From: an uncultured Candidatus Bathyarchaeia archaeon
Lineage (GTDB): Archaea > Thermoproteota > Bathyarchaeia > 40CM-2-53-6 > DTGE01
Direction of reading: 5' to 3'
DNA: 64,000 nt
Assembly (NCBI GenBank): GCA_964489085.1
Contig: CAZAXO010000001.1
Location: 1,483-65,482, forward strand
The position numbers and the translations under genes are program-made. Shown here one piece after another: positions 841 through 47,099 of the stretch (position 1 is its first letter; each line of letters opens with the position of its first letter). The notes under the pieces were generated by a model. It searched no databases and was not told the DNA's origin. It worked only from the letters and a program-made list of their open reading frames with translations.

Positions 841-1965
841 TTACTTCTTTCTCCTAACTACAATATATACAACAACAACTACACCTATACCTATAGATAT
901 AATGGAAATACCAATCGTTATAGTTGTCGAATATGATTCATCCGTTTGACTGGCATCTTCCTCCTGTACACCAGTCGGCGGAGCGTATATAACGTTATCA
1001 TCGGATATTTCTGGTGGTTCCTCGTAGTCGTCATACCAGTCAGGATCTTGGTAATTTGGTACACCATCGTTATCACTATCTGCAAATGGATCGTTTTCAT
1101 ATGTACCAACAGGAGGTGGAGGTATATCACCCCATGCTTCATCTGGCTCAGAAGAAACAATATCTTCTGTAACATCTTGTTTAGCTTTAATTTCAAATGT
1201 AACAGTCTGGTATGGACTCCAATCACCACGATTATCTCTAACCCTAAACTTCGATATGTGAGTACCAATAGCAAATTCATCTAGACTAATAGATACTTTT
1301 GCCTCATTAATCACATTGTCATTTATAACCCATTGATATTTAGAAATAGTACCATCAGAATCACTACCCGTACCAACAAATTGTGCATCAGAAGATACTC
1401 CCTGATAATATATACTATTCGATTTAGGTGTAACAATAGAAGCAACCGGTTTTACATTTGGTGCTAAAACAATTACATTTACTTTATGTACCGCACTCCA
1501 TGCGCCATCATCGTCTTTTACTTTAAATACAATATTATGAGTCCCTTCCACTAAATCAGATTTGGAAAACTGTTTAAGATTTCCAATAATACCCTGAATA
1601 CTACTTGTCCATCTGTATTCTTTAATGTATCCATCAGAATCTCCACCTCTACCTATAAACGTAACACTCGATCCAACCGTGATTGTTGTTGGTGTAACAG
1701 ATAATATAACACATGTCGGTGCTTGATTAGGTGGCGGGGTAGGAGGAGGAGGGGGGATATAAATCGGCGATGGCGATGGAGTTACAACTACAGGTTCTTC
1801 CACTGGTTCTGGTTCTGGAGTATAAGATATACCACCTCCTTCACTGTCTGGAGTGAACATCCATAATCCAGAATATCTACCTACCGAGAATATTGTAACT
1901 CCAGCAATAGCAATTACTACTATTATAATTACTCCATATATTATTTGTTTTTTATTTATATTCAT
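841..1965 (-). CDS. surface protein with two PKD-like domains, Pro-rich linker and C-terminal TM anchor
   Basis: N-terminal TM segment and a PSPSPIYIPPPPPTPPP linker. Two internal repeats carry DSDGxIxxYxW (PKD-domain-like) motifs. C-terminal hydrophobic stretch plus RRKK tail. Confidence 0.55.
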   Translation of the reverse strand: MNINKKQIIYGVIIIVVIAIAGVTIFSVGRYSGLWMFTPDSEGGGISYTPEPEPVEEPVVVTPSPSPIYIPPPPPTPPPNQAPTCVILSVTPTTITVGSSVTFIGRGGDSDGYIKEYRWTSSIQGIIGNLKQFSKSDLVEGTHNIVFKVKDDDGAWSAVHKVNVIVLAPNVKPVASIVTPKSNSIYYQGVSSDAQFVGTGSDSDGTISKYQWVINDNVINEAKVSISLDEFAIGTHISKFRVRDNRGDWSPYQTVTFEIKAKQDVTEDIVSSEPDEAWGDIPPPPVGTYENDPFADSDNDGVPNYQDPDWYDDYEEPPEISDDNVIYAPPTGVQEEDASQTDESYSTTITIGISIISIGIGVVVVVYIVVRRKK

Positions 1966-2038
1966 TTTCTTTTATCAGATTTATTTTTTATTAGATAACA
2001 TAAATATATGCTATGTTATCTAATAAAAAATAAAAAAA

Positions 2039-3424
2039 TTAACCTCGTTTTGTAATTTTTCTTATACTCATTAGTGGTATTGCAACTTTAATTACTACTA
2101 TTATCACGGCAACTATTATAACTATTGTTATTATAATTCCAAAAGCGTCTATAAATCCTGTTGCTATATCATCGAGTAAATCTGACCATATTCTTTCAAA
2201 TAATACATCTACATCAGTCTCTCCACCGACATTTGCATCCCAAATCCAATCCCCGTTTTCGACGTATGGATCATCTAAATCACTTCCACCCTGTTGATTA
2301 GTAATAGTAGCCGAACAAATAAAATTGACGTAAACCTTAAATTTCTGGTGTACAAAATAGTTATCGACGTGAACACTTGCTATTCTATTATCAATTTTAG
2401 TAATAGGACCTTCTTCCCATCCTATTCCAGCAGGTGAAATAAGTGGTACATCTTGGTAATCCCACCACAATCTACCATATCGTATATTTATTTCCTGTTT
2501 CGTTTCAGTGTATTCTGGTTTTAATCGTATTGGGACTGAGTACTTATTACTTCCTATAGACGCTAAATACGTACCAACTGGTTCAGCATTTATAGTATAT
2601 TGTTGTAACGTACTAGTATGCATTTGACCGAGACTCCACCCTAGATTTGCATCATTTATAGTACCCAACATTTCCATATGTTTATCTCCAACTAGGGTAG
2701 GATCTTGCTTTCCAATTTTAGTTGCAGTCACTGTTCCCTCCGTCGTAGATTGTTGAACGTATTTATCCTCGTAAGAACCAACCTGACCATGTCTAGTCTC
2801 TACTACTTCGATCCCCTTTATTTCTACATAAATCTTAGGTTCTTGTATTTGATACCCATTAAGAAGTATGTCTTGTCCACTCCAGTCTGGGACAATACTA
2901 ACTGAGACTGGTAAATATCCATCGTAATCGTGTTTTATAATACCACTATAATATACCGTATCATATGTAACCGAGTAAGATTTTAACTCTTCATCTAATC
3001 TGGCAGGGGGTGGAAAAATATTTTCGGCAGTAAATCTCCTAATTTCTAAGTACTTAGAACTAGATTCTCCTATTCTAAACCCAGACAATCCAGTCTCAGG
3101 TGTAACAGTCGTATAGGCATTAATCTGAAAAGTAAATATACCATCGGCTTTGAAAGCAATACGACTACTACTTTGAGTCAATATACCTTCATTTCTAAAA
3201 CTCTCAAGACTATGACCACCTTCAGAGAATCTAATTTGACCAGAACCATCAGAGGTAGTGTAATCAATGAAATTAGACACATCCACTTTAAGCCATGTAT
3301 TATCTACGTTGGCAGAATCCCAAATAGCCGTGGAAGGAGAAGTAGTAGCAGTAACAGTAGAAATACAAATATTTATAATAAGTAAGTTAAAGAAAAAAAA
3401 AATAAAAATTTTAGATTTTTTCAT
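2039..3424 (-). CDS. secreted/C-terminally anchored surface protein
   Basis: 461 aa. Signal-peptide-like N-terminus (IFIFFFFNLLIINICISTVTA) and a C-terminal TM (IIITIVIIVAVIIVVIKVAIPL). Confidence 0.5.
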   Translation of the reverse strand: MKKSKIFIFFFFNLLIINICISTVTATTSPSTAIWDSANVDNTWLKVDVSNFIDYTTSDGSGQIRFSEGGHSLESFRNEGILTQSSSRIAFKADGIFTFQINAYTTVTPETGLSGFRIGESSSKYLEIRRFTAENIFPPPARLDEELKSYSVTYDTVYYSGIIKHDYDGYLPVSVSIVPDWSGQDILLNGYQIQEPKIYVEIKGIEVVETRHGQVGSYEDKYVQQSTTEGTVTATKIGKQDPTLVGDKHMEMLGTINDANLGWSLGQMHTSTLQQYTINAEPVGTYLASIGSNKYSVPIRLKPEYTETKQEINIRYGRLWWDYQDVPLISPAGIGWEEGPITKIDNRIASVHVDNYFVHQKFKVYVNFICSATITNQQGGSDLDDPYVENGDWIWDANVGGETDVDVLFERIWSDLLDDIATGFIDAFGIIITIVIIVAVIIVVIKVAIPLMSIRKITKRG

Positions 3425-3436
3425 AATACCACCAAA

Positions 3437-4465
3437 TTACGCAGCAATATCCGAGTATTTAGTAAAAAGTCCTAAGTTATCGTCGTCTTGTGGGACGACA
3501 ATTCTCCCACTGTCAACATCCGAAATTGATATATTAGTACCAAACTCCATTTCAAATGGAAGGGTGTAATCGTTATATTTGAACTGAATGACCTGAGTAA
3601 ATACAAAGTAGATCTTATCACCAGAAATAATTACTTCAACTGGATAATCTGTGTAGAAATCAGTAATACTACAGTTAACTTGGTTAACGTTACCGTCCGT
3701 AGTGCTTACGGTATCGTTAAAATCGATCATTAATGCAAAAGCATTAGTAATTCGTTCCAATGTGTCATCGTATTTCTTTTGAGTGTCTACTGCTGGATCG
3801 TATGTTGGCGCTTGACAACGCCAAAATCGTTCGTCGTATAATTCTCGTAACTCCGTAGCATCCATATCATTTACGTCAGATTGCTCAATGTCCCAACCAC
3901 CACTTCCGGCATGAGCATTAGTCGTAGTGCTTTGTGGAACACTCATAATAAACGTAAAATTACCATTAGTCTGATAACTACCCATAGTAACTTCGTCGTT
4001 TGTGCTGGTTAACATATTAAAATTTAGGTCAGACGATTGATGGTAAACGTAAATAGTGTATTGCCCGTTTCCACTAAACAAGTGAAAGTTATTGGCAAAT
4101 ACCGTATCTCCGTCTGGGTCAATTTCGACCCAGAAGTAGGAATGTGCCGAAAGATCCTCAGAAACATCCTCCGCGTCGTCGGACGCCACCTCTTCTTCGA
4201 AATTCGTAGACAAATATGTTACATCTTCGAATTCCTCAATAGAGTCAGACTCTTCTGGTACCCATATAGAAATGGGTACAAAATCCGATACGTCTTCTCC
4301 GTCAACATAGGAAATAACCGTAAACGTAGAAGTTGTCGGAGTAGTAGTCGTTGTAGGTGCAGCAGCCCATAAACCAGCCATATTACCAACAAGGAAAAAC
4401 ACCAACATCCCAGAAACAGCCACAATGATAACAAGGAGTATTGCTTGCGATTTTTTTAATCTCAT
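3437..4465 (-). CDS. secreted protein with Thr-rich linker
   Basis: 342 aa. N-terminal TM/signal, then a TTTTTPTTST tract and acidic segments. Confidence 0.5.
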   Translation of the reverse strand: MRLKKSQAILLVIIVAVSGMLVFFLVGNMAGLWAAAPTTTTTPTTSTFTVISYVDGEDVSDFVPISIWVPEESDSIEEFEDVTYLSTNFEEEVASDDAEDVSEDLSAHSYFWVEIDPDGDTVFANNFHLFSGNGQYTIYVYHQSSDLNFNMLTSTNDEVTMGSYQTNGNFTFIMSVPQSTTTNAHAGSGGWDIEQSDVNDMDATELRELYDERFWRCQAPTYDPAVDTQKKYDDTLERITNAFALMIDFNDTVSTTDGNVNQVNCSITDFYTDYPVEVIISGDKIYFVFTQVIQFKYNDYTLPFEMEFGTNISISDVDSGRIVVPQDDDNLGLFTKYSDIAA

Positions 4466-4768
4466 AATATTTTTTAATTCTCCATATTTTTTACGTTAGA
4501 TCTTTAATATAATTTAAACAGGTATAATATATAAATCTAATTAAAATCGCGATGTAAACACAGAATATAATATAGTAACATAAACTTATTATAAGTCAAA
4601 AATACAATATATGGAGTTTAGCATTTTTAGGAATAAATTATAATATGCTTTAAATCCGAAGAAAAAATCAAAAAATAAAGTACATTAAAATCATATAATT
4701 TGATTTGAAAAAATCAATATAAAAATATAAAATAGAATAAAGAAAAAGAAAAAAAAATAGTTTTTAAA

Positions 4769-5062
4769 TTATAGATTTTCCATTTTTTCAAATAGTTGTT
4801 GTTGTATCTTCCTAAAATGTCTTACTCTAAAATTGTTATTGAATAGTTTTGCATCATCTATTAAACTATCTAACATTTCAAGAGATTCGATAATTCCTTG
4901 TTCGGTAGTTTTAGGTAATAAAGTACTTTCTATCATCGCTTCTTCGGTTCCGCAGTTTGGACATATTTTGGATTTACCGTCCATTCTACTCAATGCTGAT
5001 CGCGCTACATAACTATTTTTACATCTTGGACATATTTTAGGTTGTTCTTTAATTTCCATCAT
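4769..5062 (-). CDS. zinc-ribbon protein (CxxC...CxxC)
   Basis: 97 aa with a CPRCKNSY...CPNCGTEE zinc ribbon. A TFS/RpoM-like ribbon is possible but not established. Confidence 0.4.
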   Translation of the reverse strand: MMEIKEQPKICPRCKNSYVARSALSRMDGKSKICPNCGTEEAMIESTLLPKTTEQGIIESLEMLDSLIDDAKLFNNNFRVRHFRKIQQQLFEKMENL

Positions 5063-6697: not shown

Positions 6698-8248
6698 TTA
6701 TTTTTTAATGAAGTTACTAGCTTCTTTTTGAACTTTACTATATCTGTTATCTGACAACCATTCTCCAAATCTACCAATGGTACTTTCCATTATTTTATGG
6801 AATCTCTCATAAAATTCAAACTCGTGTTCATTAGAATTTTTGGATTCATCCGTGTGTGCATATTCGTGACACAAAAATCTATATATTTGAGCCATTGTAC
6901 TCTCGTAAATTTTGGCGTCCATAAAAAATTTCATGTTTATAGTAATATATGTACTACCGTCAGTCCATCCATTCAACTCTTTAGATGCTTTCATGAGTTT
7001 TAACTCTCTAACCGGTTGACCCTCAAAAACGTAATCATTCAAAAATTTTGCAGCATAAAACAATGTTCGCTTAACCTGAGATTTCAAATGTTTAAAAAGT
7101 TCATTTATATCAACCATTTTCTCACCCTTATCAGTCAAAACCTCAGCAGGCAACTCTTCCCGCATTGAGATTCTAAAAACTTCGTAACCTTCAGTACCAG
7201 CGATACGATTGATTGCTCGCTCAAACCTCTTATCTACGACTAAATATCCACGTCGTAAAGCCCTATCAGCGAGTTTAGAACCACCTTTAGCAAAATATAT
7301 ATCATCATAGGATTTAAGCACATTTATGCTAACCCTTTTTCCATTTGCCAAAAGAATAAGTTCTTTATCCTTTATAGTATCAAGCGAAATATCACCAGCC
7401 ATAAATTTGTCAACTATAATTTTAGCCAAATCTGGTCCGAACTTATTTCGTTTTTTGATATGACGTTCTTCTATTTCTTGAATAAATCTAATAAATCTCT
7501 TTTTTCTGTTCGATTCAACAAAATCGTTCCTAGCAAAATTGGTCTCTATCTTTTTCTTTACATTATAACTGACATTAAAAATACTATGAGAATCTTTAAC
7601 GTAAATTCCCATAGCATATAAACTACCACCGTAGGTACCACCGTAGGACGAATCCTTTAACTTAAATGCTTCAAAAATTTCATTTTGTTCAATTATTTTA
7701 TAATCGGGTTCAATCAACTTTTTATTTATAAACACTTTAGATTTTACCATATAAAAAGTCCTTTCCAATTGTCTACATATACCAGAGACCCTATACGACT
7801 CCATCCCGTCGTATAATTCGACATAGGAATTAGTTCCATCCACCTTCTTATCTAACTTATCTAAGGTATACGATAGACCGTTCTTTCTCACATCAATCTC
7901 TATCTTGTTAAAAAGAGATTCTATTGTAATCCTACCATACTGCATCATCTGAAGAATCCCAATGCCAAAGAAACCTATTTTGGTTTCATCGTCCCTTTTA
8001 GTAGAATCACCAATAGTTTCGAATTCGTTACGTATAATCTCTTCGGTCATACCAGAGCCATCATCTATTACCGATATGTAATCTTTGGTAATAGTGATAT
8101 TAATATTAGCTGAATCGGCATCAATCGAATTTTGAACAACCTCAGAAATAGCCTTTCTAAGGTCTGTACCCTGATACTTCATCATCAGGGAAATTAATTC
8201 CTTTCCAGCCTTAAAGTCCCTTCTTTCCATTTTCTTGACAACCTCCAA
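6698..8248 (-). CDS. GHKL (Bergerat-fold) ATPase with C-terminal HExxH motif
   Basis: N-box EVVQNSIDA, G1 box IDDGSGM and G2 box GFFGIGIL near the N-terminus. C-terminal LCHEYAHTDE is a zincin-like HExxH. Confidence 0.5.
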   Translation of the reverse strand: MEVVKKMERRDFKAGKELISLMMKYQGTDLRKAISEVVQNSIDADSANINITITKDYISVIDDGSGMTEEIIRNEFETIGDSTKRDDETKIGFFGIGILQMMQYGRITIESLFNKIEIDVRKNGLSYTLDKLDKKVDGTNSYVELYDGMESYRVSGICRQLERTFYMVKSKVFINKKLIEPDYKIIEQNEIFEAFKLKDSSYGGTYGGSLYAMGIYVKDSHSIFNVSYNVKKKIETNFARNDFVESNRKKRFIRFIQEIEERHIKKRNKFGPDLAKIIVDKFMAGDISLDTIKDKELILLANGKRVSINVLKSYDDIYFAKGGSKLADRALRRGYLVVDKRFERAINRIAGTEGYEVFRISMREELPAEVLTDKGEKMVDINELFKHLKSQVKRTLFYAAKFLNDYVFEGQPVRELKLMKASKELNGWTDGSTYITINMKFFMDAKIYESTMAQIYRFLCHEYAHTDESKNSNEHEFEFYERFHKIMESTIGRFGEWLSDNRYSKVQKEASNFIKK

Positions 8249-9665: not shown

Positions 9666-10043
9666 TTAAACCTCTTTTAATATTTGTCTTAAATTCATAA
9701 TAACATATTTACATGCGTAAAGACATCCGTAATAATATATATCTTTCCACTTGTTCTTACTCTTTCTTACTTTTTTTGTATAACTTTTAAATCTATTAAA
9801 TAGATCATCGATAAAAATATCGAGTGGTTTTTTATCGGTCTCATTGGTAAATCTGCGTAATGTATATATTATACCATCCTTCATTTCTTTTGGTACTTCT
9901 ACAAACTTATCGAAAATGAGTTGATATTTGCTACTATCGTAAAACATAATTTCGTTAGTTATCTTGGTATTAATAGTTTCTTTTAGTTTCTTTTTTATTT
10001 CTTTTAAGGCTTCTATGAGTTTCATGTTGTCACCTTTGTACAT
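9666..10043 (-). CDS. hypothetical protein
   Basis: 125-aa ORF. Confidence 0.35.
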   Translation of the reverse strand: MYKGDNMKLIEALKEIKKKLKETINTKITNEIMFYDSSKYQLIFDKFVEVPKEMKDGIIYTLRRFTNETDKKPLDIFIDDLFNRFKSYTKKVRKSKNKWKDIYYYGCLYACKYVIMNLRQILKEV

Positions 10044-10942
10044 TCTCCTATAGCATATGATGTATATTGACTTAATTCCTGTCGTTGTTCTCGAGTTAAC
10101 ATACTCATATATCCTTCATCCCATAAAAATATTTGTACGTTTCTATACCTAGACTTATATCTTAGAATAATTTCTTCTCTGAGTCTTGTCTCAGCGAATT
10201 CATCACCGTTTCTAGCCAGTTCTTTTAACAAAGGAAAGCTTAATTTTGAATCCAAGACTCTTGTGTCGTAACCGTTTTCTACCCATGCTTGTACGTTGGA
10301 ACAGTGTCCCATAAATTCTTCGTCTGGAGTCAACATGGTTGTGTCGGACTCATTCCTGTTCGAGTATAAATCTACGATTTCATCGATGCTTTCGAAGTCG
10401 TCGTTCGAATGGTTGCAGGGGATGCTAATCAATAGATATGAACATTGCATAAATTGATTATTATTTATATAAATTCGTGTACGATTATCATGTTTGACTA
10501 ATTTTAAAAGGGAAGAACGAGGATTTGGATAAAATACTTTGTGAACTAGCCCTTTAGCTCCTATAAGACTAGCTCCAAATAGATCAGTCTTGTCGAAATG
10601 TGTATTATTTAGATTAGACCCTTCAAGATTAGCATCTCTTAGGTTGGTTCTGGTGAGATTAGCCCATTCAAGATTAGCTCCTTGTAAGTTGGCTCCCTCA
10701 AGATTAGCTTCTTGTAAGTTGGACCTCCCTAGGTCTGCTCCTTCAAGACAAGCCCCTCTGAGATCAGATATATTTAAACTAGCCCACCTCAAATTGGCAT
10801 TTTTAAAGTTAATATCCTTTAGATCAGCATTTGTAAGGATAATTTTCGAATAATCTACTCCCTCAAAGTTTGCCCCTCGTAGGTTAGCACCTTTAGTTGG
10901 TATTTTAGTAATACTACCAGTATCAGTATCATAAAACTCCAT
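10022..10942 (-). CDS. pentapeptide-repeat protein
   Basis: About 25 consecutive A(D/N)LxG pentapeptide repeats (ANLRGANFEGVDYS...ANLEGANLQGANLEWANLTRTNLRDANLEGSNL), followed by a unique C-terminal domain of about 150 aa. Confidence 0.7.
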   Translation of the reverse strand: MEFYDTDTGSITKIPTKGANLRGANFEGVDYSKIILTNADLKDINFKNANLRWASLNISDLRGACLEGADLGRSNLQEANLEGANLQGANLEWANLTRTNLRDANLEGSNLNNTHFDKTDLFGASLIGAKGLVHKVFYPNPRSSLLKLVKHDNRTRIYINNNQFMQCSYLLISIPCNHSNDDFESIDEIVDLYSNRNESDTTMLTPDEEFMGHCSNVQAWVENGYDTRVLDSKLSFPLLKELARNGDEFAETRLREEIILRYKSRYRNVQIFLWDEGYMSMLTREQRQELSQYTSYAIGECTKVTT

Positions 10943-15579: not shown

Positions 15580-15970
15580 CAGTTTTTATCTTACTAAACC
15601 TCCTACTTATAAAAGATATCTCTTCTTTAGAAAATTTGATTTTAGTATCGAAACTAACATTATTAGATCTCATTATTTTTTGATAAATTACCATTAATAC
15701 CAATACTTTGTCTAATACTGATGACTCAATTTGCTTGACAGTACCATTTTTTAAGTCGTATACTCCATAACTAACCCTTTTAAATTTATCTTTATGATTA
15801 TACAACGTTGTATTAATGGTATTCCTTGTAACCTTACCATAGGATGGATCTTTATTTAACTCGTTAACTATCTCTATAAGTTGCATAGATCCTTCTTTTT
15901 TTAATAATTTTTCTATCCTATCAACTAAATACATGTTATTAATAACGTTAAACGATATAATTGACATCAT
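15560..15970 (-). CDS. hypothetical protein
   Basis: 136-aa ORF with a 4-nt overlap with the upstream gene. Confidence 0.35.
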   Translation of the reverse strand: MMSIISFNVINNMYLVDRIEKLLKKEGSMQLIEIVNELNKDPSYGKVTRNTINTTLYNHKDKFKRVSYGVYDLKNGTVKQIESSVLDKVLVLMVIYQKIMRSNNVSFDTKIKFSKEEISFISRRFSKIKTDGEYRL

Positions 15971-16776
15971 AAAACACGTTTCATCCTGTTAAACTCTTTT
16001 AACATTCCCTCCAACTCTTTTTTATATAAACTCTTTCCTGTTTTGACGTATTTATACATTTTACTTAAATACCATTTAAAATTTAACATATCAATCTCAC
16101 TAATTCTATTCACATTACCTCCAGTAAACAATTTAACTAATGATTCACTCTTTGTAGGCCCTACACCACTAATTCTATTTGAAACTATGGTTGGATCCCG
16201 TATATTCGATATATCTCTTATTGTATAATATTTCCTAGCTTTTTTCGATAAATTATATCCCCAACCTTCGGCACAAGATATAGCACCTATCTCTCTATCA
16301 TCGGTAGATGCTATTGGTTTATATAATTTAGTAAAATCTATGGTACCAGTAGAATGTTTAAGTATAGATACAATCATATAGGCAGATTCCTCCTTATTGG
16401 CAGAATGGTAAATACTGACACCATACTTAGTCATTAGTGAACCAAGGGCTCCAAGTTTACTCTCGGTACTCATTTGGGAAAAGACGTTATTTATATCCCC
16501 TTCTATTAAGATGATAACACGACTAAACCCATTTTCATACATCTCTATGACCTGTCTAAATAATCTACCATCGGCAATAGAAGAAACATAATCATCTTTG
16601 CTTTTTCTTTCTATTCCAACATTTCCAACTTTAGAGTCCTCACCCCTAATAATATAATCGCATACAGGGAAATGAGAAGAAAATACTCTACATTTAATAT
16701 TATATTGAGAAATATTGATTCTTAAATACCTAATCATAATAGATGGTTCTCTATTATCCACACCAAGTTCCATCAT
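15967..16776 (-). CDS. ERCC4-type (XPF/Hef/Mus81-like) structure-specific nuclease
   Basis: ERCC4 signature GIERKSKDDYVSSIADGRLFRQ. The start overlaps the helicase stop by 4 nt. Confidence 0.6.
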   Translation of the reverse strand: MMELGVDNREPSIMIRYLRINISQYNIKCRVFSSHFPVCDYIIRGEDSKVGNVGIERKSKDDYVSSIADGRLFRQVIEMYENGFSRVIILIEGDINNVFSQMSTESKLGALGSLMTKYGVSIYHSANKEESAYMIVSILKHSTGTIDFTKLYKPIASTDDREIGAISCAEGWGYNLSKKARKYYTIRDISNIRDPTIVSNRISGVGPTKSESLVKLFTGGNVNRISEIDMLNFKWYLSKMYKYVKTGKSLYKKELEGMLKEFNRMKRVL

Positions 16777-18884
16777 AAAAATACTGCAGCTCCCTTTTTA
16801 ATTTCCATTATACTATCAGTCTTTAAACCTATAATTTCAGATAATTTAGAAACTGATGTAGAAATGAATTTTTCAACCGAGTCAATATTTCTACTTAATA
16901 GTGAACTTAATCGTTTCTCACCAATACCTTTCAATTTAGCTAACTCTATGATACCACCCGTTATGATACCATGTTTAGCCCCTATTAGTAAGTCAGTTAA
17001 TTCCTGCTTGTAATCTCTAAATAGAATCGAAGAAATAGATAAGAAACGTTCAGAAGCACCAAGTACAGTATACTTATCACCCGAACTGAAGGTGAAATTC
17101 TTTTTAACTTTATTTATTTCTTTGTTAAGTTTGCCTATTTCGTTAGCTATTGTATATTGATCATATTTTTCTACATATTCTACTTTCCGTTCTAACTCAT
17201 CTATCCTATCTTGATATTCCGTCGTTTCTTTCATTATTAATTCTTTATGATAAGTAAGAGCAAAAATTTTCATTATATTACCAGAAAAATCTATATACTT
17301 ATCCATTATTTTATACCCAAAATGTCTGGTTATTTCCTGTCTTGGTTTAATAAAATCTATGGCATAATCTATCTTAGTTTGATCGTTATCATAAGCTACC
17401 ACTATGGATGCATATTCTGGAGCACTGGCTATTAAACAGAATAATTCTCCATTGGTCAAATCTTCCTTTTTATACAACACTCTCTCCCAGTGAACAACCG
17501 TTTCCGGTTGTATTGAATACTTTGAAGTCATTCTGCCCTTAAAGGTAGGTACCAATCTATCACCATTAGTATGAACAAATCTGTGTTTCGTTAACCAATT
17601 CAACTCACTTACTAATAAATCTCTAGTTATAGTATTATCCATAAGGAAATTTTCTATTAAAGAAAACTTATCAACATCGGTCACTATCTCAGAAACCACC
17701 CATCCAAGTTCGTATTTCTTAAGGTAGTTCCTCAACTTTGACTCAACCAAAAGTGGTCTTTTCATATGCTCAAGTACTTCCTCCTTTTCAGACTCAGCAC
17801 AAAAAACGAAAGCATATCCCATTTTGGAAAAACCAGGTCGTCCAGCCCGACCCATACTTTGTTCTAAACGGTCTTTTTCAATTAGTTGTCTACCAAGTAA
17901 ATATGAATACTGATACATATCGAACATTACGACTATATCAGCAGGTAAATTTACTCCCATTGCTAATGTGGGAGTAGCAGCAACTATGTTAATTCTACCA
18001 CTTCTGAACATATCTTCAACTTTGTCTTTTTCCTCAACCGACATACCAGCATTATGCCAACCCATTTTATAAGTGTATAATGCTTCATTTAATTTAATAT
18101 TATTATTATGAGTAAGTTCGGATATTACACCCCTAGTTCTGGATCTTGAAGTCGTAAATATGAGAATTTTCTTATCTGGAAATTTAACAATAATTTTACG
18201 GATAATATCGACTCTCGCCTTTATATCCAACCAATAATTATAGTTTTTGCGATATGTCATAACGTATTTTTTCAATGGTACAGGTCGTTCGTCTTTACCA
18301 GCACTTATTAACGACATTTTTAAATCATCGGAAAATTTTACCGGATTATCAATAGTAGCAGATAAACCAACGATTTGACAATCAGGAAATAAAACTCTAG
18401 TCATTATCACATCACATTCCACTATACCACCTCGTGACTCATCACCGTAGTTATGAACCTCATCTATAACTACTAGTCCGAGATTAGAAAAGATTGTACG
18501 TTTATTCACATCATTAAGAATAACATAAAACCTCTCATATGTAAGTATAGCAATATTCCAATCACCGTACTCATCTATTTCCTTCCTGTTATCACCATCA
18601 TCTAAGATAATTCTACTTTTTGGAAAATATTTCTTCAACTCAGCGGTTTGCTCCTTAGTTAAAACTTTCAATGGTGACAATAAAACTGCTCGTTTTCCAA
18701 CACTTAAAGTCTTAGCTATTGCCATAATAGCAATAGGTGTCTTACCATAACCCGTAGGTAAGACAGTAATGAAATTTTTCCGCTCATTAATTAAAGGTAT
18801 AGCCTCCTCTTGACGAGGTCTAAGCATAAACGGAAATGATAACCCATAAACCTTAGCGACACTCATATTTCTTTTGACCTCCAA
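16773..18884 (-). CDS. SF2 DEVH-box helicase (Hef/Hel308-like) with C-terminal HhH
   Basis: Walker A LPTGYGKT, VIDEVHNYGD, motif VI SMGRAGRPG and a C-terminal LAKLKGIGEKR helix-hairpin-helix. Confidence 0.75.
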   Translation of the reverse strand: MEVKRNMSVAKVYGLSFPFMLRPRQEEAIPLINERKNFITVLPTGYGKTPIAIMAIAKTLSVGKRAVLLSPLKVLTKEQTAELKKYFPKSRIILDDGDNRKEIDEYGDWNIAILTYERFYVILNDVNKRTIFSNLGLVVIDEVHNYGDESRGGIVECDVIMTRVLFPDCQIVGLSATIDNPVKFSDDLKMSLISAGKDERPVPLKKYVMTYRKNYNYWLDIKARVDIIRKIIVKFPDKKILIFTTSRSRTRGVISELTHNNNIKLNEALYTYKMGWHNAGMSVEEKDKVEDMFRSGRINIVAATPTLAMGVNLPADIVVMFDMYQYSYLLGRQLIEKDRLEQSMGRAGRPGFSKMGYAFVFCAESEKEEVLEHMKRPLLVESKLRNYLKKYELGWVVSEIVTDVDKFSLIENFLMDNTITRDLLVSELNWLTKHRFVHTNGDRLVPTFKGRMTSKYSIQPETVVHWERVLYKKEDLTNGELFCLIASAPEYASIVVAYDNDQTKIDYAIDFIKPRQEITRHFGYKIMDKYIDFSGNIMKIFALTYHKELIMKETTEYQDRIDELERKVEYVEKYDQYTIANEIGKLNKEINKVKKNFTFSSGDKYTVLGASERFLSISSILFRDYKQELTDLLIGAKHGIITGGIIELAKLKGIGEKRLSSLLSRNIDSVEKFISTSVSKLSEIIGLKTDSIMEIKKGAAVFL

Positions 18885-20168: not shown

Positions 20169-21002
20169 TTATACATTTTCCTTTAATTTATGCTTATGTA
20201 GTCTAACAAATACCCTTATATCTGGATTAACCTTTCTCAAATATACTCTTCTGGCTTTCAATAATTCAAGATTAGATATTAAATTAACCCAAAATCTTTT
20301 AGTAAAAATAATAAATATCTTTCTCCATATCCCCTTATATTGTTTCATCAATTCATAATAATACCAATACGGATTTTTATCCCATTTAGGCTCCCAATAC
20401 CACTTAACCCATAAACCATTGTTTATCTCAGCTACCCACCGCCTTAAACAACTTATACACCATCCACACGATCTATGCTTATTATCGTAGCAAGACACCG
20501 TAAAATTTTCTAAATCCTCTACATCTCCACCTTTCTTAATATACTTTTTCAATAATTTAGTCTTTGTATACCTTCTAACTGGAAATTCAATTTTTACCTT
20601 CCTTTTAGTTTGTAATCCAAGAACATCGTCCCAACAATAAGAAATTATATTCTGAGCCATTTTCCTAAATTTATTAGTCTTATCCTTACTAGTTTCACCC
20701 CTGAGAGCACACAAATAAACTATATCCCCGTAAAAACTAGCTATTTCAATAAAGAATAAATTTCGTAAAGGTATATGAGCATTATCCAACTCAAATCCAA
20801 GTATACTACTTGCATCTACAATGATGAGCCTACCTCCGAATCCCCCAAGTTCATCAAACGCATTAATAATTTTTAACTCTTTTTCTTCGTATCTGGAACC
20901 TGTCTTAATGTATAGTAATATATCTGGTTCAAATAGGAAATTACATATAAAACTATCCATTCCACCTGAATACAGTAAGACGGTCTTTTTCTCACTTGAC
21001 AT
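20169..21002 (-). CDS. queC: 7-cyano-7-deazaguanine synthase QueC
   Basis: PP-loop VLLYSGGMDS, YIKTGSRYEEKE, and a C-terminal CGWCISC zinc site. Confidence 0.7.
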   Translation of the reverse strand: MSSEKKTVLLYSGGMDSFICNFLFEPDILLYIKTGSRYEEKELKIINAFDELGGFGGRLIIVDASSILGFELDNAHIPLRNLFFIEIASFYGDIVYLCALRGETSKDKTNKFRKMAQNIISYCWDDVLGLQTKRKVKIEFPVRRYTKTKLLKKYIKKGGDVEDLENFTVSCYDNKHRSCGWCISCLRRWVAEINNGLWVKWYWEPKWDKNPYWYYYELMKQYKGIWRKIFIIFTKRFWVNLISNLELLKARRVYLRKVNPDIRVFVRLHKHKLKENV

Positions 21003-21312: not shown

Positions 21313-21649
21313 GGTCTAAAAATATATGTACATATATTATAAGTAGTATTCTAAGGATAATATCTACAATAATTAATTCATTTATAAAAACAATTACAAA
21401 TAGTAAAATAATAAAGGTAATAGTTGCTAAGAATCTATAACTATGTAAATATAAATGTAACTTACCTTTAAAGCCTAATAATTTATCTTGCGTATTTTTT
21501 TGCCATAAATCACTAACTATATATATGAGCATAATATCAGGCAAAAATGATATAATAACACCAATAAACCCAAAAATAATAAAAGATATAACTACAGTCA
21601 ATATAGTATTAATTATATCTAGCATTATTTTTATTCTTCTATTATTCAC
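21263..21649 (-). CDS. small polytopic membrane protein
   Basis: 128 aa with 3-4 predicted TM helices. Overlaps the GT gene start by 4 nt. Confidence 0.4.
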   Translation of the reverse strand: MNNRRIKIMLDIINTILTVVISFIIFGFIGVIISFLPDIMLIYIVSDLWQKNTQDKLLGFKGKLHLYLHSYRFLATITFIILLFVIVFINELIIVDIILRILLIIYVHIFLDHATHSKKYNRFFEGYM

Positions 21650-22620
21650 AGGACAACCCTATATTTAGATAATTTTTGAATATATTTAAATTCATTTATA
21701 TCTATTATCTTACCATCAAACAATCCAAACAATTTTATTAATCCTAACTTTATCCCGTACATAAATGCCCGAATCTTTAATTTAAAAGGCTGTCCCTTCA
21801 ACTTTATATTATTTATTATAGATAGTAACATACCAATAGGATCTAATCTTCTAAATAAATATATTATTATCTCATTTCTAAACATTAAATAATGTCTGAA
21901 CTTATCAAATTTAGTAATGAGCAACTCTACATTATGTTCAGCAATAGTACTAGGTTGAAATATACAATAAACATCCTTTCTAAATGCTGTATTACTAATA
22001 TCTTCATGGTAAACAAAAAACTCAGTATCAAACCAAAGTTCCTTCTCCTTAAACATCCAAACATCCAATAATACACAAGTAGTTATCATATGACCAATAC
22101 TTATTGATTCTGAAGGTATATCATCAATTTCACCTTTACGTATCGTATTATTAAAATGTTTATTATATTTACCGTAAAACCAAATTCTATTAGTACCACC
22201 GTACAACATTTTTGGACATACAGCATATGTTCTATATTTCTTAATAATATTAAGTAACATTGATATAGTATCTTTCCTAATATAGGAATCAGAATCACAT
22301 ATTAGCAAATACCTAGACACACATTCCCTTATTATTCTATTCTTACCGTAGGAAGCACCAAGATTGGAACCCGAATAAATAATATGAAAGTTTAGTTTTA
22401 TGTATTCAAATAATAGATTATATAACCTATTAATATCAATAGAACTATAACTATCATTAACTAACAGAATTACCTCCCCTATATAATTCCTTTCATATCT
22501 TAACGAATTAAGTAATAAACGTAAACCATTAAATTCATTATTAAACACAATACCTACAGTTATCCTATTCTCATTATACCAATATAAATCGAGGCCGGAT
22601 TTAGTAATGTTTATTTTCAT
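21646..22620 (-). CDS. family-2-like (GT-A fold) glycosyltransferase
   Basis: N-terminal VGIVFNNEF...LLLNSL, LLVNDSYSS, and a DxD-like CDSDS. Length 324 aa. Confidence 0.5.
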   Translation of the reverse strand: MKINITKSGLDLYWYNENRITVGIVFNNEFNGLRLLLNSLRYERNYIGEVILLVNDSYSSIDINRLYNLLFEYIKLNFHIIYSGSNLGASYGKNRIIRECVSRYLLICDSDSYIRKDTISMLLNIIKKYRTYAVCPKMLYGGTNRIWFYGKYNKHFNNTIRKGEIDDIPSESISIGHMITTCVLLDVWMFKEKELWFDTEFFVYHEDISNTAFRKDVYCIFQPSTIAEHNVELLITKFDKFRHYLMFRNEIIIYLFRRLDPIGMLLSIINNIKLKGQPFKLKIRAFMYGIKLGLIKLFGLFDGKIIDINEFKYIQKLSKYRVVL

Positions 22621-22635
22621 TTTAATCCCCTTTTT

Positions 22636-23952
22636 CTAAATGATATTTCTAAAATAGTCGGAACATCTCTGTATACAACGTATAGCATTTCTAATTATGA
22701 CTCCATTAACATTAAATTCACGAGATGAGAGTTCAAACTCAATTTTATTAAAATTCTTCAACTTTTCTTCATTACAACAATATTTCTCATTAATCCATAA
22801 TAAGTATTTTTTTTCATTTTCAGTGGCATCACAAAAACACAATCCACAGGTAGTACATTTCATAAGACCACATTTTTTACAGAAAGTTTTAATAGAAGAT
22901 GCTATAGTTATTGGGCTTCCACAGAACCAACAAATATGATCTTCAGATTCTTTTATTTCTCTGTTTCTTGCCCTAACACACTGTTTTAATCCAGTATCAT
23001 AAAAATTGACGTTTTTACCTCCCTTATGCATAACTTCTAACCTCGTTAATTTTTCTAAATCGTAATAGCAAGAAAGGTAACATCCATTACATTCCTCAAT
23101 TCTTTCTTTAAAAATCTTAACGTACCATTCAAATCCATACTTCTCTATACTACGGTTTAAATCGAATATATTAAAATCAAATGGCACCATATCCTCACAG
23201 GGCATAATCATGAGGTCGTTATTTACTACTAATCTATAAGGATAACTACAATGCCAACTCATATCCATAAATTTTGGTATATTTCTAATATATTCTTTTG
23301 TATTATGAATCAGAAGTTTATCATAATTATATAAAACATTCTTAACATCATCTATTATTCTATATTTCAGACGCGAATCGTTAATAGAAATAGTAGAATC
23401 GTAGTTTCCCATCAGACAATGTTTTCTATCGTCTGTACTATAATTATATACAGCAACTATAGTCCACACTTTTAGGCTGGTAAAATATCTGATAGTATCA
23501 AATAATTTTCCAATAGTCTTTTCTTCGTATAATAGATTTATGGAAACATCATCAAAATATTTTCTATATATATCAAACTTATCCTTAAAACCTTTGTAGG
23601 AATCTACACTTATAGTTATATTCTTAAGACCAGATTCACTCAACCTCATAGCAATAGATTCACTTAACTTACTACCATTAGTAACTATAGTGAAATCCAT
23701 TCCCAATGTATCACTGAGATATCCTATGACATCGTATATATGTTCATATTCCAATGGTTCACCCCCCATGATAACAATAAATTCAGACAAATTACTCATT
23801 ATTTCCAACGCATTTATAATATCTATAAAATTAGCATCCTTAGTCTTAAGAGATTTGGAAGAACAAAAAGGACAGTCATAACTACAATTTCTATTTGATA
23901 TAAACAAACAAGATTTAAACATCTTCTCTTTCATTCTAATTTTTTCTACCAT
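22636..23952 (-). CDS. radical SAM enzyme with C-terminal Cys-rich SPASM/twitch-like domain
   Basis: CSYDCPFC (Cx3Cx2C) at residues 23-30, a VIMGGEPLEY glycine-rich motif, and C-terminal CNGCYLSC...CWFCGSP...CKKCGLMKCTTCGLCFC. Confidence 0.6.
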   Translation of the reverse strand: MVEKIRMKEKMFKSCLFISNRNCSYDCPFCSSKSLKTKDANFIDIINALEIMSNLSEFIVIMGGEPLEYEHIYDVIGYLSDTLGMDFTIVTNGSKLSESIAMRLSESGLKNITISVDSYKGFKDKFDIYRKYFDDVSINLLYEEKTIGKLFDTIRYFTSLKVWTIVAVYNYSTDDRKHCLMGNYDSTISINDSRLKYRIIDDVKNVLYNYDKLLIHNTKEYIRNIPKFMDMSWHCSYPYRLVVNNDLMIMPCEDMVPFDFNIFDLNRSIEKYGFEWYVKIFKERIEECNGCYLSCYYDLEKLTRLEVMHKGGKNVNFYDTGLKQCVRARNREIKESEDHICWFCGSPITIASSIKTFCKKCGLMKCTTCGLCFCDATENEKKYLLWINEKYCCNEEKLKNFNKIEFELSSREFNVNGVIIRNAIRCIQRCSDYFRNII

Positions 23953-31648: not shown

Positions 31649-32599
31649 TTAAAATTCAAATAGTGTCGTCTGTTTTTCGTTAACAGATAATTTCCTAAGT
31701 TTACCGATTCCATTCTCCACCCTAACCCTAGAAAATCCATTTTTCTCATATAAAAACTCAAATAATTTTTCAAAGTCTGGTTTCTTCCTTGTTAGTTTAT
31801 AATTAGTATTTACATTAGGATTTAAATACATTCCCATAAGCCTATGATATAAATCGAAAAATTCTCCGTTTTTAAGCATCTTACCAGTTTTACATTCTAT
31901 CATAGCCTTATCAATAAAAGGAGCCTTAAATATATCATCATACTCCGTCACTGCCTTTACCGCCGTGTTAACACCAACCCCCTTTATACCAGAAAAATAA
32001 TCATTACCAGATAATATGGCAATAGATATAAGATCTTCACGTTTCAATCTTTTGTCATTCAAAACCTTAGCCAAAGAAATGAATTCTATTTTGTCTGCTT
32101 TCATAGCCAAATTTCTAACCAAACGTTTACCACCAAATAAGAGTATATCGAAGTCCTGACTACAAGCACAAAAGGCTTGATCTTTCATTGTTAGATAAGC
32201 ACATTGGGCATCACCTTCACTCGGAGATTGAATAGATTGTATACCCATTAAATCTAACAACTCTTTACCAGATTCTATTACCTTATCGGTAATATGTATC
32301 AAATCCTTATTTTTCTGTCTATACCACCTAAGTTTAGTTATCTTTTCATTACCGTCAAAACAGTAAATAGGTCTAATATCGTGTTCCAATAATTTTAAAT
32401 TTCTATAAAACAACCCAGATAAATGTGACGTAATATCACCACCGTAATTCATAAGGGGTTTTCCGTCAGAACCCCTTATGGCATGTAGGAATTGATAAAT
32501 AACGTTAAAAGCATCTACACTAACAGTCCTATTTATCAAACTACCCATTGTCAAGTCTCGTTTAGTAGACTCAGTCAAAACACCTATACCACTACCCAT
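31649..32599 (-). CDS. fen: flap endonuclease FEN-1 (XPG family)
   Basis: XPG-N GDITSHLSGLFYRNLKLLEHDIRPIYCFDG and XPG-I SPSEGDAQCAYL...SQDFDILLFGG, with an HhH-like region. Confidence 0.8.
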   Translation of the reverse strand: MGSGIGVLTESTKRDLTMGSLINRTVSVDAFNVIYQFLHAIRGSDGKPLMNYGGDITSHLSGLFYRNLKLLEHDIRPIYCFDGNEKITKLRWYRQKNKDLIHITDKVIESGKELLDLMGIQSIQSPSEGDAQCAYLTMKDQAFCACSQDFDILLFGGKRLVRNLAMKADKIEFISLAKVLNDKRLKREDLISIAILSGNDYFSGIKGVGVNTAVKAVTEYDDIFKAPFIDKAMIECKTGKMLKNGEFFDLYHRLMGMYLNPNVNTNYKLTRKKPDFEKLFEFLYEKNGFSRVRVENGIGKLRKLSVNEKQTTLFEF

Positions 32600-37805: not shown

Positions 37806-38912
37806 TTAGAATAAGTAGTCGAATTTTTTAAGTATGTTTAGTTTTCTTGGGTCTATTTGTTTATAGTAATTTTTAAAATCATCACTTTGTAAACATAATA
37901 GTATATAAGGGCAAAAATCAAAACATTTGTTTGACGGTTTTCTTTTGAATTTACATAGATTAATGTCGTTGATGAGTTCTTTTTTTAGATTATCATACTC
38001 TCTTAACATATCGATATTAAATGGTATATATTTAAATGTATTTTTCCAGTCTTGTATGTATAAAACGAAACCAGATGTTGGAGTTAGTCCTTTTAGATCT
38101 TCCAATATGTTTATACCATCTTTAGTTACAACCTTATATATATTCTTATTTGAGGATAGTAATCTGAAATAAGAGCCAAGTTCGAAGTTTATTGTTTTTT
38201 TATCGTAGTTGGTATAGATTTTAGGTAAGCTTTTTATATATTCGTCAGTTACTTTTGGATTGTCTCTTAAATTATAATATTTTGGTTTTCCGGTTTTGTA
38301 ATCTCCTATTGCTATAGTGTCGGTTGTTTTTCTATGTATCACATCTATAACTCCGACATCACAATTATTGTGATTTTCTATTCTTAGCTCTCTATATATT
38401 GGTTTTATGTATTTCCAAGAACGATTATTTCCAATATCTTCTCGGATTTTAAAGATTCTATACGTTTCGTAGTTAGCATATTTTAGAAACAGATACTTAT
38501 ATGTTAATATTTTTTTTTCGTTCTCAGGTACAAAGCTTCTACATTTTAGATATATATAGTTTCTAACTTTTAACTTATTTGTGTATGTTGTTAATAATTT
38601 TCTACTTAACTTATTCCATACTTTATTAAATACGAAATGAGCGTTCGAACCGAAGATACCGGAGTTCGAGTTTCTACCATCGTTAATAAAGACATTTTTT
38701 ACTCTAGCGTAATCGAATTGTTTTGGACAAATTGGATATTTACCTACCCAAGACTTACTTAAATATTTTAGTTTATTAATCATATAATCTATTGTATTTA
38801 GATTAAACGGTATATAAACTAATTTGTCTCTTAGTAAATTATTATATAATTGTAGGTATTCATCTCTGGTTAGATTATATTGTTTTTGTATTAAATTATA
38901 ATTAGAGGTCAT
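37806..38912 (-). CDS. Cas4/RecB-family PD-(D/E)xK nuclease-like protein
   Basis: VIDVIHRK...IAIGDYKTGK (the D...DYK motif), a QxxxY-like segment, and a C-terminal Cys cluster CKFKRKPSNKCFDFCPYILLC typical of Fe-S Cas4-type nucleases. Confidence 0.4.
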   Translation of the reverse strand: MTSNYNLIQKQYNLTRDEYLQLYNNLLRDKLVYIPFNLNTIDYMINKLKYLSKSWVGKYPICPKQFDYARVKNVFINDGRNSNSGIFGSNAHFVFNKVWNKLSRKLLTTYTNKLKVRNYIYLKCRSFVPENEKKILTYKYLFLKYANYETYRIFKIREDIGNNRSWKYIKPIYRELRIENHNNCDVGVIDVIHRKTTDTIAIGDYKTGKPKYYNLRDNPKVTDEYIKSLPKIYTNYDKKTINFELGSYFRLLSSNKNIYKVVTKDGINILEDLKGLTPTSGFVLYIQDWKNTFKYIPFNIDMLREYDNLKKELINDINLCKFKRKPSNKCFDFCPYILLCLQSDDFKNYYKQIDPRKLNILKKFDYLF

Positions 38913-38914
38913 TA

Positions 38915-45686: not shown

Positions 45687-46499
45687 TTGATTTATGTAGT
45701 TAATTACGACATGGATGAAGAAGATATAAGCAAAATCTCGGATTTTAAGTATAATAATATATTTATAAACTGTCTAGACCATAGTACAAAGGGTATAGAA
45801 AATGTACTCATTAATACATTTGCTGAGCCAAACAGAAATTTCTTTTCAGGTAAAATATGTAGGTATATAATTAGAAACGTATATTTTGCTAATAATAAGT
45901 CTATAGATATAGTTTTCCGAAATGTTGGTAGGATTATATATCTTATTAATATTAGTTATGAACAGGAGAAGTACATATATTCTAAACACAAAAATAAATA
46001 TAGGTATTATAAGTGTTCATTTAAAAGGAGGGATGATTCGTTTACACTTATGGTTAAACGGGTTATGTTTTGGAATGATATGAACAAATTGAGTTTATTG
46101 GAAGGACAAAGTTATGATATAGGTTATTTATTGAAATTAATTAGTTATAACCTACCGGAGTCTGTGTTATCTGAAACGGACTTTCTTAATAATCTTGAGC
46201 TTATAATGGATTTAGGTAAGTATGTTAATATGATAAATAAAGAGAATATATTTGTATCTTTACTATTGAATTTTGTTACACCTTCTTATATAACTAAATT
46301 TAGATATCCTCCTAAACATAGAAAAGGAAAAAAGAAGAAGGAGGAATCTGAGTTAAAAACTAAATATGGTGGCAATATAGAGGATATGGCTCGTGATAAA
46401 ATGATTGAATATTTTAAATATAGAGACTCTGATTTTGGAAATATTAATACATCGAAAAAAGCCAAAAAAAATAACGATAATACAATGAGTTTGATATAA
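45687..46499 (+). CDS. hypothetical protein
   Basis: 270-aa ORF, the first gene of the plus-strand block. Confidence 0.4.
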   Translation: MIYVVNYDMDEEDISKISDFKYNNIFINCLDHSTKGIENVLINTFAEPNRNFFSGKICRYIIRNVYFANNKSIDIVFRNVGRIIYLINISYEQEKYIYSKHKNKYRYYKCSFKRRDDSFTLMVKRVMFWNDMNKLSLLEGQSYDIGYLLKLISYNLPESVLSETDFLNNLELIMDLGKYVNMINKENIFVSLLLNFVTPSYITKFRYPPKHRKGKKKKEESELKTKYGGNIEDMARDKMIEYFKYRDSDFGNINTSKKAKKNNDNTMSLI

Positions 46500-47099
46500 A
46501 TGAATTTTGAGGATATAACTGATATTAAATTTAAGAAGATAGATAAGGATACTATAGAGTTTACTAAAAAGACCTCATTATGGTGTACCTTACCATATGA
46601 TAACCATAGTAAAGGGTGTCCTAACTACGGTAAAAAAAATACATGTCCACCAGATGCTCCGTATTTGGAACATGAAGTAAAGTCATACGAACATATATAT
46701 TTACTTTATTTACGCTTTGATTTTGAGATGTATAGAGTAATAAGGGGCAATGAATGGATTAATAAGGGATTTCCTTATACAGAAAAGCAATTGCGTTGTC
46801 TTTTATATTATCAACCCTCAATAAAGAGGATAATTAAAAATCATATAATTAATAAATTATTTACTCTGGGAAGTATTTATGTTCTTGGATGTGGTTCTGG
46901 GTTGAGGCTTCCTTTTCAAAAGATTGTGTATTCTATGGAAGCTGTTGGTATAAATGTATTTAAAACGTTAAAAAATAATAATATTTATCATGAAATCAAA
47001 CCTGTTAATACTACATTGTTTGTTAATTTAATATGTTCGAGTGATATTGTATTTGAGAGGAAAGAGAAGAAAGAGATAAAAATAATGGAGTTGATATGA
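46500..47099 (+). CDS. hypothetical protein (CPNYGKKNTCPP motif)
   Basis: 199-aa ORF immediately adjacent to its neighbours. Confidence 0.35.
   Translation: MNFEDITDIKFKKIDKDTIEFTKKTSLWCTLPYDNHSKGCPNYGKKNTCPPDAPYLEHEVKSYEHIYLLYLRFDFEMYRVIRGNEWINKGFPYTEKQLRCLLYYQPSIKRIIKNHIINKLFTLGSIYVLGCGSGLRLPFQKIVYSMEAVGINVFKTLKNNNIYHEIKPVNTTLFVNLICSSDIVFERKEKKEIKIMELI

Follow-up and report, generated by a model that had tools for sequence, protein, structure and literature searches.

The locus and its predicted product

The subject of this analysis is a single gene in a 64,000-nucleotide (nt) stretch of contig CAZAXO010000001.1 from an uncultured Candidatus Bathyarchaeia archaeon (the whole stretch is referred to below as the window). 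The open reading frame (ORF) listing of the window places the gene at 6698–8248 on the minus strand, with 516 amino acids (aa) counted from a TTG at 8248. The true coding sequence is probably 6698–8230, starting with an ATG and encoding 510 aa; a GGAGG lies 10 nt ahead of this ATG (8230), and the 510-aa form is present in a public protein collection (P0001). Residue numbers used here follow the 516-aa TTG form; for the ATG form 6 has to be subtracted.

The gene ends with a stop codon at 6698–6700, and all features described in this section lie on the minus strand. The product was divided into an Hsp90-type N-terminal ATP-binding domain of the Bergerat/GHKL kind (residues ~1–178, 7715–8248; delineated from Pfam, the match to HtpG and the structural model), a region resembling the Hsp90 middle domain (residues ~179–400, 7049–7714) and a C-terminal Wss1/SprT-like minimal zincin of the minigluzincin type (residues 401–516, 6701–7048). 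The ATP-binding domain starts with an N-terminal strand and helix, which precede the N-box EVVQNSIDA (residues 36–44, 8117–8143), where E36 is predicted to occupy the position of the catalytic base and N40 that of the Mg2+ ligand. The G1 box IDDGSGM (residues 61–67, 8048–8068), with the pattern D62-x-G64-x-G66, is, like the N-box, read directly from the translation, and the G2 box GFFGIGIL (residues 92–99, 7952–7975) was located both in the translation and by HHalign. The middle region includes the putative catalytic-arginine loop IETNFARNDF (N237, A239, R240, N241; 7520–7549), found by HHalign comparison with the corresponding loop of Hsp90. In the C-terminal domain, the motif GWTDGS (W428, T429, D430, G431; 6953–6970) lies in the β-sheet region of the zincin, and the zinc site HEYAH-x9-H-x3-FY-x-RFH (6797–6868) is defined by conservation and by alignment with Spartan. 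Residues 461–475 translate as HEYAHTDESKNSNEH, in which H461, H465 and H475 are predicted to bind the zinc and E462 to act as general base.

The N-terminal and middle regions: a divergent Hsp90 module

Pfam searches confidently identified the N-terminal domain, with residues 28–113 matching both HATPase_c_3 (score 54.3 bits, threshold 25, E-value 1.9e-14) and HATPase_c (score 36.2 bits, threshold 26.4). With the motifs in the right order, Pfam scores above threshold and a Bergerat fold in the model, the protein belongs to the GHKL superfamily. The AlphaFold model used here was built on a 146-sequence alignment (mean predicted local distance difference test score, pLDDT, 92.7; predicted template modelling score, pTM, 0.78); a model from a 4-sequence alignment (pLDDT 45.7) was set aside. 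In a Foldseek comparison of the former with the PDB, the top 50 matches are full-length Hsp90s only (Hsc82, TRAP1, HSP90-beta, GRP94 and HtpG), with E-values from 3e-17 to 5e-15 over 490–690 alignment columns, and in the structural comparison 348 residues are aligned with TRAP1.

The sequence profile of the family leads to the same group of proteins. Its best match in the PDB is the N-domain of HtpG (E-value 2.4e-10), covered as a whole (profile positions 52–190), and HHalign matched the family to an Hsp90-family profile (P0154, which carries PF00183) with 98.3% probability (E-value 2.3e-14) over 277 columns, corresponding to residues 33–315 of the window protein. In this alignment the G2 box of the family coincides with the glycine-rich segment of Hsp90 (iGhFGlGFYS in P0154), the segment P..KWD.E...AY..F is matched to the beginning of the middle domain of Hsp90, and the near-invariant L-x-V-N-F-A-R-N falls on the Hsp90 loop P-L-N-V-S-R-S-A-L-Q. 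Through an arginine in the N-V-S-R loop, the middle domain of Hsp90 completes the ATPase site; in yeast Hsp82 this residue is R380, and the PDB entry described as R417A of zebrafish TRAP1 is a mutant at the same position. Because the structural, profile and arginine-loop alignments agree, we conclude that the N-terminal ~400 residues form a divergent Hsp90 N-plus-middle module. The homology extends over the full length of the N-domain and on into a middle domain with the catalytic arginine, whose contact with ATP (R240 in the window protein) is predicted.

The departures from Hsp90 are also clear, and the protein does not count as a canonical member. The target protein gives no match to Pfam PF00183 (HSP90) at E-value ≤1 and scores 25.4 bits with the NCBIfam HSP90 model NF010683, far under its cut-off of 455. 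Identity in the structural alignments is ~14–16%. Hsp90 shares with the family the Bergerat N-domain along its whole length, the fold of the middle domain and the arginine loop (N-F-A-R-N in the family, N-[LV]-S-R in Hsp90), and HtpG, TRAP1, Hsp82 and GRP94 are the relatives among which the best sequence, profile and structure matches are found. However, the Hsp90 C-terminal dimerisation domain is absent from the target protein, its place being occupied by the zincin, and the family is carried by mobile elements, whereas Hsp90 is encoded by a housekeeping gene.

The earlier note on this DNA had quoted the three ATPase motifs and a C-terminal HExxH, all of which are borne out by the translation, and had proposed a check against HATPase_c, to which the N-terminal motifs do align. 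It had placed the protein with MORC, MutL, topoisomerase VI-B and Hsp90-type ATPases and had raised a role in DNA manipulation or in defence or anti-defence. The Hsp90 part of that placement is upheld; MORC, MutL and topoisomerase VI-B do not prove to be the closest relatives, since HtpG matches the full N-domain and the arginine loop is of the Hsp90 type. A DNA clamp of the MORC/MutL/topoisomerase VI-B type (GHKL plus S5), which would compact, nick or remodel DNA with the HExxH as an accessory, does find relatives in the PDB search, but MutL and PMS2 (~1e-6) match from the N-box to G1 only and MORC2 is weaker still (5e-4). The MutL and MORC matches are thus limited to the N-box–G1/G2 part, while HtpG covers the whole domain, TRAP1 aligns ~100 more residues, the HHalign alignment runs through the Hsp90 middle domain, and the residue contributed by the second domain is an arginine in an N-x-[AS]-R loop. 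Moreover, Pfam detects no MutL_C, DNA_mis_repair, MORC S5 or topoisomerase VI-B transducer domain, so that the search for S5 and transducer domains suggested in the earlier note came back empty. MORC or MutL as the closest family was accordingly rejected (no S5 domain, MutL_C or MORC CW/coiled-coil), as was identity with the ATPase of topoisomerase VI-B or a type II topoisomerase (no transducer domain). We consider the DNA clamp very improbable and prefer a chaperone-protease, so that the interpretation offered in the earlier note is supported in part.

Another group of GHKL proteins had to be considered. RIIA proteins of phages possess an N-terminal GHKL module and a variable C-terminus and are regarded as poorly understood counter-defence factors (PMC7824862). 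Many models of T4-type RIIA are strong structural matches of the window protein (Foldseek against BFVD, E-values 1e-13 to 1e-9), but the sequence similarity is marginal (PHROG RIIA, E-values 3e-5 and 1.6e-4, over ~40–56 residues). No rIIB or other PHROG match was found among the window neighbours scanned, and orthology with RIIA was rejected, as neither full-length similarity nor an adjacent rIIB was observed.

The C-terminal domain: a minimal zincin

In the full protein, residues 402–489 give a sub-threshold match to Pfam SprT-like, and when 36 C-terminal domains of the family were scanned singly, 13 matched SprT-like (PF10263; best E-value 1e-5) and 6 matched WLM (PF08325), all below threshold. 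A PDB search with a profile made from a shallower alignment found nothing; the profile of the 36 domains retrieved five PDB sequences only, i.e. proabylysin (E-value 0.047), Spartan (0.08 and 0.087), Wss1 (0.29) and SdeC (1.9). In the four alignments shown, which are those with proabylysin, Spartan and Wss1, both the HExxH and the third His superpose, together with the Phe downstream of it, and the family pattern HEyaH..sHgpeFYerfh is aligned with HEMIH...GHGPEFCKHMH of Spartan. On the grounds of these alignments and of the SprT-like and WLM matches, the domain was assigned as a minimal zincin of the Wss1/SprT/minigluzincin type, and it exhibits the HExxH, the third His, the aromatic residue and the compact α/β fold characteristic of zincins. 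Taken together with the N-terminal part, the architecture (an Hsp90-like N-plus-middle module fused to a Wss1/SprT zincin) is, in our judgement, very probably correct.

The zincins chosen for comparison were Wss1, SPRTN (Spartan) and the archaeal minigluzincins selecase, projannalysin and proabylysin. In contrast to SPRTN, the family has no detectable zinc-binding subdomain or SHP, PIP or UBZ motifs, and in contrast to Wss1 no SUMO or Cdc48 motifs were detected; furthermore, its ATPase is a GHKL protein fused in cis, whereas that of Wss1 and SPRTN is the AAA+ protein p97/Cdc48 acting in trans. FtsH, whose protease is a HExxH zincin, and Lon also carry, in a single chain, a protease together with an ATP-driven module for handling proteins, but there the module is an AAA+ ring translocase and here a GHKL clamp, and neither hexamer formation nor processive unfolding finds support in the family. 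For the ArdC-type anti-restriction proteins and for zincins of the SprT-like and MPTase types, an action on proteins of the host soon after the DNA enters has been proposed (PMC5512222, PMC7824862). They resemble our family in being zincin metallopeptidases found on plasmids, integrative and conjugative elements (ICEs) and phages and fused to a targeting or handling module; however, the ArdC partner is the ssDNA-binding ArdC-N domain and that of the family an Hsp90-like ATPase, and the family zincin is closest to Wss1/SprT. No match to ArdC was obtained in Pfam or the PHROGs, and none is present among the structural matches listed.

Size and conservation of the family

A word-indexed homolog search recovered just 4 relatives (25–100% identity), all of which retain H461, E462, H465, H475, F479 and H484, and re-seeding it with 50 sequences added generic GHKL proteins only. 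The family was delineated by an exhaustive hidden Markov model (HMM) search with residues 120–516, leaving aside the generic ATP-binding motifs, against clusters at 50% identity. This search revealed at least 1,242 clusters at E-value ≤1e-3 (991 at ≤1e-10 and 308 at ≤1e-30), and the apparent rarity suggested by the word search is thus false. The listed matches are mostly 500–650 aa long and begin to align near residue 120, from which it follows that the architecture is common to the listed relatives, and an HExxH followed by a downstream His is present in 153 of 153 top relatives retrieved.

Conservation was counted in the alignment of 146 relatives. In the ATPase site, N40, G64 and G97 are invariant (146/146) and E36 (144/146), D62 (144/146) and G66 (145/146) nearly so; the arginine loop is equally well preserved (R240 145/146, N237 142/146, N241 143/146). 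In the zinc site H461, E462, H465 and H475 are each present in 146/146 sequences and F479 in 144/146, and elsewhere in the zincin domain R414 and T429 (146/146 each) and W428 (145/146) stand out. The third ligand, H475, thus bears out the zincin-like signature suspected in the earlier note, and the HExxH, loss of which among homologs had been named there beforehand as a possible refutation, is kept throughout. Nine residues separate the HExxH from the third His in 108 of the 138 sequences that match the motif pattern. As both catalytic centres are near-invariant across the 146 relatives, we conclude that strong purifying selection acts on both.

Many members from bacteria, plasmids and ICEs are longer, 770–860 aa (L021–L032, L035–L041, L050; L126 9001–11391), and possess an extra C-terminal extension of ~230 aa past the zincin, which has no match in Pfam and is missing from the window protein. 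In databases the family is labelled "ATP-binding protein" or "DNA mismatch repair enzyme". A scan of NCBIfam revealed no family dedicated to the fusion, and no earlier description or study of a fusion of GHKL/Hsp90 with SprT, a zincin or a metallopeptidase was found in the literature, in which subscription journals were thinly covered.

Distribution on mobile elements

The family is large, unnamed and restricted to mobile elements, namely viruses, plasmids and ICEs. The closest homolog comes from the marine sediment metagenome LCGC14; its contig and a second viral one are syntenic with the window over 4769–5062, 3437–4465 and 2039–3424. Short-form members occur on a virus-like contig of 99 kb that also encodes Endonuclease VII, Rnl2 and a Zn ribbon of the TFIIS type, and on a 58.5-kb virus-like contig with an integrase, a β-helix protein and a giant ORF. 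A scan of IMG/VR with C-terminal motifs found two true members, on contigs of 298 and 351 kb, a count which is a lower bound owing to the narrowness of the patterns; 71 loci from a scan of viral contigs with N-terminal GHKL patterns were discounted as generic GHKL matches. The contig of the Acinetobacter phage MD-2021a (L128 3024–6094) encodes a full-length member, which scores 369 bits with the family HMM and has kept its zinc site intact; the gene immediately upstream bears the annotation of a peptidase (yfgC_2). The member itself is annotated as "DNA mismatch repair enzyme (predicted ATPase)", probably due to generic GHKL similarity, and ~89 Acinetobacter plasmids bear the same type of protein.

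Bacterial members occur sporadically, in Burkholderia, Pseudomonas, Erwinia, Shewanella, Paenibacillus, Saccharibacteria and Anaerolineae. In PLSDB, 196 plasmids carry the family (Acinetobacter 89, Pseudomonas 50, Xanthomonas 22), 91 of them predicted to be conjugative and 42 mobilizable, and the features listed for these matches bear the name "ATP-binding protein", apart from a few that are called "hypothetical protein" or lack an annotation. On the P. syringae plasmid pPs7B44 the gene lies between virB11 and the coupling-protein gene and is followed downstream by a topoisomerase gene (type IA) and by genes for SSB and a relaxosome component; in Erwinia elements it is found between TraC and TraU/TraG, on a Xanthomonas plasmid amid ParB-N, PAPS-reductase-like and DinG genes, and in Vreelandella it shares a block with the gene of a DEAD/Helicase_C helicase and with genes of the KorA, NinX and DUF3846 types. 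Across 35 bacterial loci searched for operon partners just one neighbour recurs, a type IA topoisomerase (8/35), to which the helicase of the window is unrelated.

The position of the gene inside type IV secretion system (T4SS) clusters of plasmids and ICEs, and its synteny with possible structural or surface genes (3437–4465 and a putative PKD-domain protein) in the window and its relatives, could be taken to indicate a factor for assembly or maturation, which would fold and trim the virion or T4SS proteins of its own element. However, one and the same family is found in viruses and in conjugative elements, whose structural machineries are unrelated, the gene is absent from most T4SS operons, it has no conserved structural neighbour, and the protein has neither a signal peptide nor a membrane segment; such a role appears quite improbable. 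A single-protein module for defence or exclusion, in which the ATPase would sense a competing invader and unleash the protease (abortive infection or superinfection exclusion), would agree with the sporadic phyletic distribution, with the frequency of defence genes on mobile elements and with weak N-terminal matches to TmtA (E-value 3.8e-8, residues 29–98), a REase_II model (residues 36–128), MzaB and BbrUII. These matches, however, do not go beyond the generic GHKL motifs and fall far short of the family cut-offs (MzaB 17.9 bits against 850), no PADLOC model spans the protein, no effector or sensor gene is associated with it, and the gene resides in conjugative transfer operons and virus genomes, not in chromosomal defence islands. 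We therefore regard this explanation as improbable, and membership in a known defence system was rejected, the PADLOC similarity being restricted to the N-terminal GHKL part.

Proposed function

Our preferred interpretation is that the protein is a single-chain chaperone-protease, composed of an Hsp90-type N-domain, a middle domain contributing the catalytic arginine and a Wss1/SprT zinc metalloprotease, to which we assign a probability of roughly 0.7. By analogy to Hsp90, binding of ATP would close the clamp, with R240 sensing the γ-phosphate; closure would capture or remodel a client protein, or un-gate the protease, and the adjacent zincin, with zinc held by H461, H465 and H475 and E462 as the general base, would then cleave the client. 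Whether the two activities are coupled in this manner we judge to be an even bet. The spread over viruses, plasmids and ICEs suggests a role in something that every invading or replicating DNA element needs, and the protein may serve the mobile element at establishment, DNA transfer or replication in the host; that it acts at establishment or against the host is proposed tentatively, at somewhat less than even odds.

As to the client, one option is a host factor, e.g. a defence protein, that would be degraded as envisaged for ArdC-type and SprT-type zincins, and another is the stripping of proteins stuck on the DNA of the element, in the manner of Wss1/SPRTN with p97/Cdc48. Phage SprT-like and ArdC zincins have been proposed to cleave host proteins (PMC7824862), and SPRTN and Wss1 are known to be helped by p97/Cdc48 (PMC9127365, PMC10308373). 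An ATP-dependent protease with an Hsp90/GHKL clamp in the place of an AAA+ ring, which would "capture and cut" when the element enters a cell or replicates in it, thereby destroying a host defence factor or clearing DNA-locked proteins, is possible, and we put it forward with reserve. A specific version of the same explanation is a protease of DNA-protein adducts, whose zincin would degrade proteins attached, covalently or just tightly, to the DNA of the element (a relaxase, a type IA topoisomerase that has become trapped, replication proteins or terminal proteins), with the Hsp90-like module in the unfolding or loading role of p97/Cdc48. It agrees with the topoisomerase, SSB and relaxosome genes found as neighbours, with the resemblance of the zincin to Wss1/Spartan and with the basic charge of residues 246–400, the C-terminal half of the middle region (+11 in the window protein, family median +4); we hold it to be rather doubtful.

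Several observations weigh against the chaperone-protease. The C-terminal domain of the window protein scores 17.2 bits with SprT-like, under the gathering threshold of 25.6, and the E-values of the zincin matches in the PDB are weak (0.05–0.3). Hsp90 functions as a dimer held together by its C-terminal domain, and the target does not have this domain. Both enzymatic activities and the link between them are predictions, the operon-partner search in the 35 bacterial loci revealed no conserved partner or substrate gene, and the genomic context alone does not separate anti-defence from removal of DNA-bound proteins, exclusion or assembly.

Other features of the window

The window has a G+C content of ~30%, and no tRNA genes were found in it. 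Most of its ORFs have no match in PHROGs or Pfam, and a scan of ~35 of the larger ones against both detected no capsid, portal, terminase or tail families. It encodes an XPG/FEN1 flap endonuclease, an exonuclease-like protein, a family B DNA polymerase (PolB) and an RFC-like AAA+ protein (31649–32599, minus strand; 37806–41617, minus strand; 47100–48059, plus strand), and the best matches of PolB are from haloarchaeal tailed viruses (~23–25% identity). This set of replication proteins of the archaeal/eukaryotic type suggests that the window derives from a highly divergent archaeal virus. At 15967–18884 (minus strand) an SF2 helicase of 703 aa (matching the PHROG "Holliday junction branch migration helicase" at an E-value of 1.5e-54) is directly followed by a 269-aa ERCC4/XPF nuclease, and the pair looks like a split version of archaeal Hef. 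The large ORFs are nearly all on the minus strand, with the exception of a plus-strand block at ~45.7–50.2 kb (45687–50216); the sign of the GC skew flips at this block and again after 62 kb, which may reflect divergent transcription units or a region of replication origin.

Downstream of the target, on the minus strand, lie genes for a 97-aa CxxC...CxxC zinc-finger protein with a weak HVO_2753-like match (4769–5062), a protein of 342 aa whose N-terminus is hydrophobic and which contains a Thr-rich stretch (3437–4465), a 461-aa protein (2039–3424) and, as the next gene, a protein with sub-threshold PKD-domain matches (841–1965). The module 4769–5062, 3437–4465 and 2039–3424 is conserved in related contigs (L001–L003), and the products of 841–5062 may be surface or structural proteins. 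At a distance of 1.8 kb upstream of the target, 10022–10942 (minus strand) encodes a 306-aa pentapeptide-repeat protein (Pfam Pentapeptide, E-value 4e-37); the pentapeptide-repeat proteins Qnr and MfpA are DNA mimics, and the product of 10022–10942 could be a viral anti-restriction or anti-topoisomerase factor. A QueC-like protein (20169–21002), a family-2 glycosyltransferase (21646–22620) and a radical-SAM protein (22636–23952), all encoded on the minus strand, form a cluster that suggests viral DNA modification of the 7-deazaguanine type, possibly glycosylated.

Implications

As far as we are aware, the ATP-dependent proteases that have been studied in depth are all driven by AAA+ motors, and Hsp90 is known as a chaperone that passes its clients to a separate degradation machinery and is not known to have a protease of its own. 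The family described here is a new architecture that joins a GHKL chaperone module to a protease, each part being of a known kind. If our prediction is true, the combination of an Hsp90-like module and a Wss1/SprT-type zincin would be a new way to couple ATP to proteolysis and a cis-fused analogue of the p97–SPRTN/Wss1 partnership, used from bacteria to archaea. The interest is real, not extreme, pending an activity or a phenotype. The protein is a strong candidate for a role in establishment or counter-defence that has so far escaped recognition, and it is carried by plasmids of Acinetobacter, Pseudomonas and Xanthomonas as well as by divergent, probably archaeal, viruses. Its recognition would correct the annotations "ATP-binding protein" and "DNA mismatch repair enzyme", would provide a tractable bacterial model for the help given by an ATPase to a Wss1/SPRTN-like protease, and may illuminate the related, long-enigmatic RIIA proteins.

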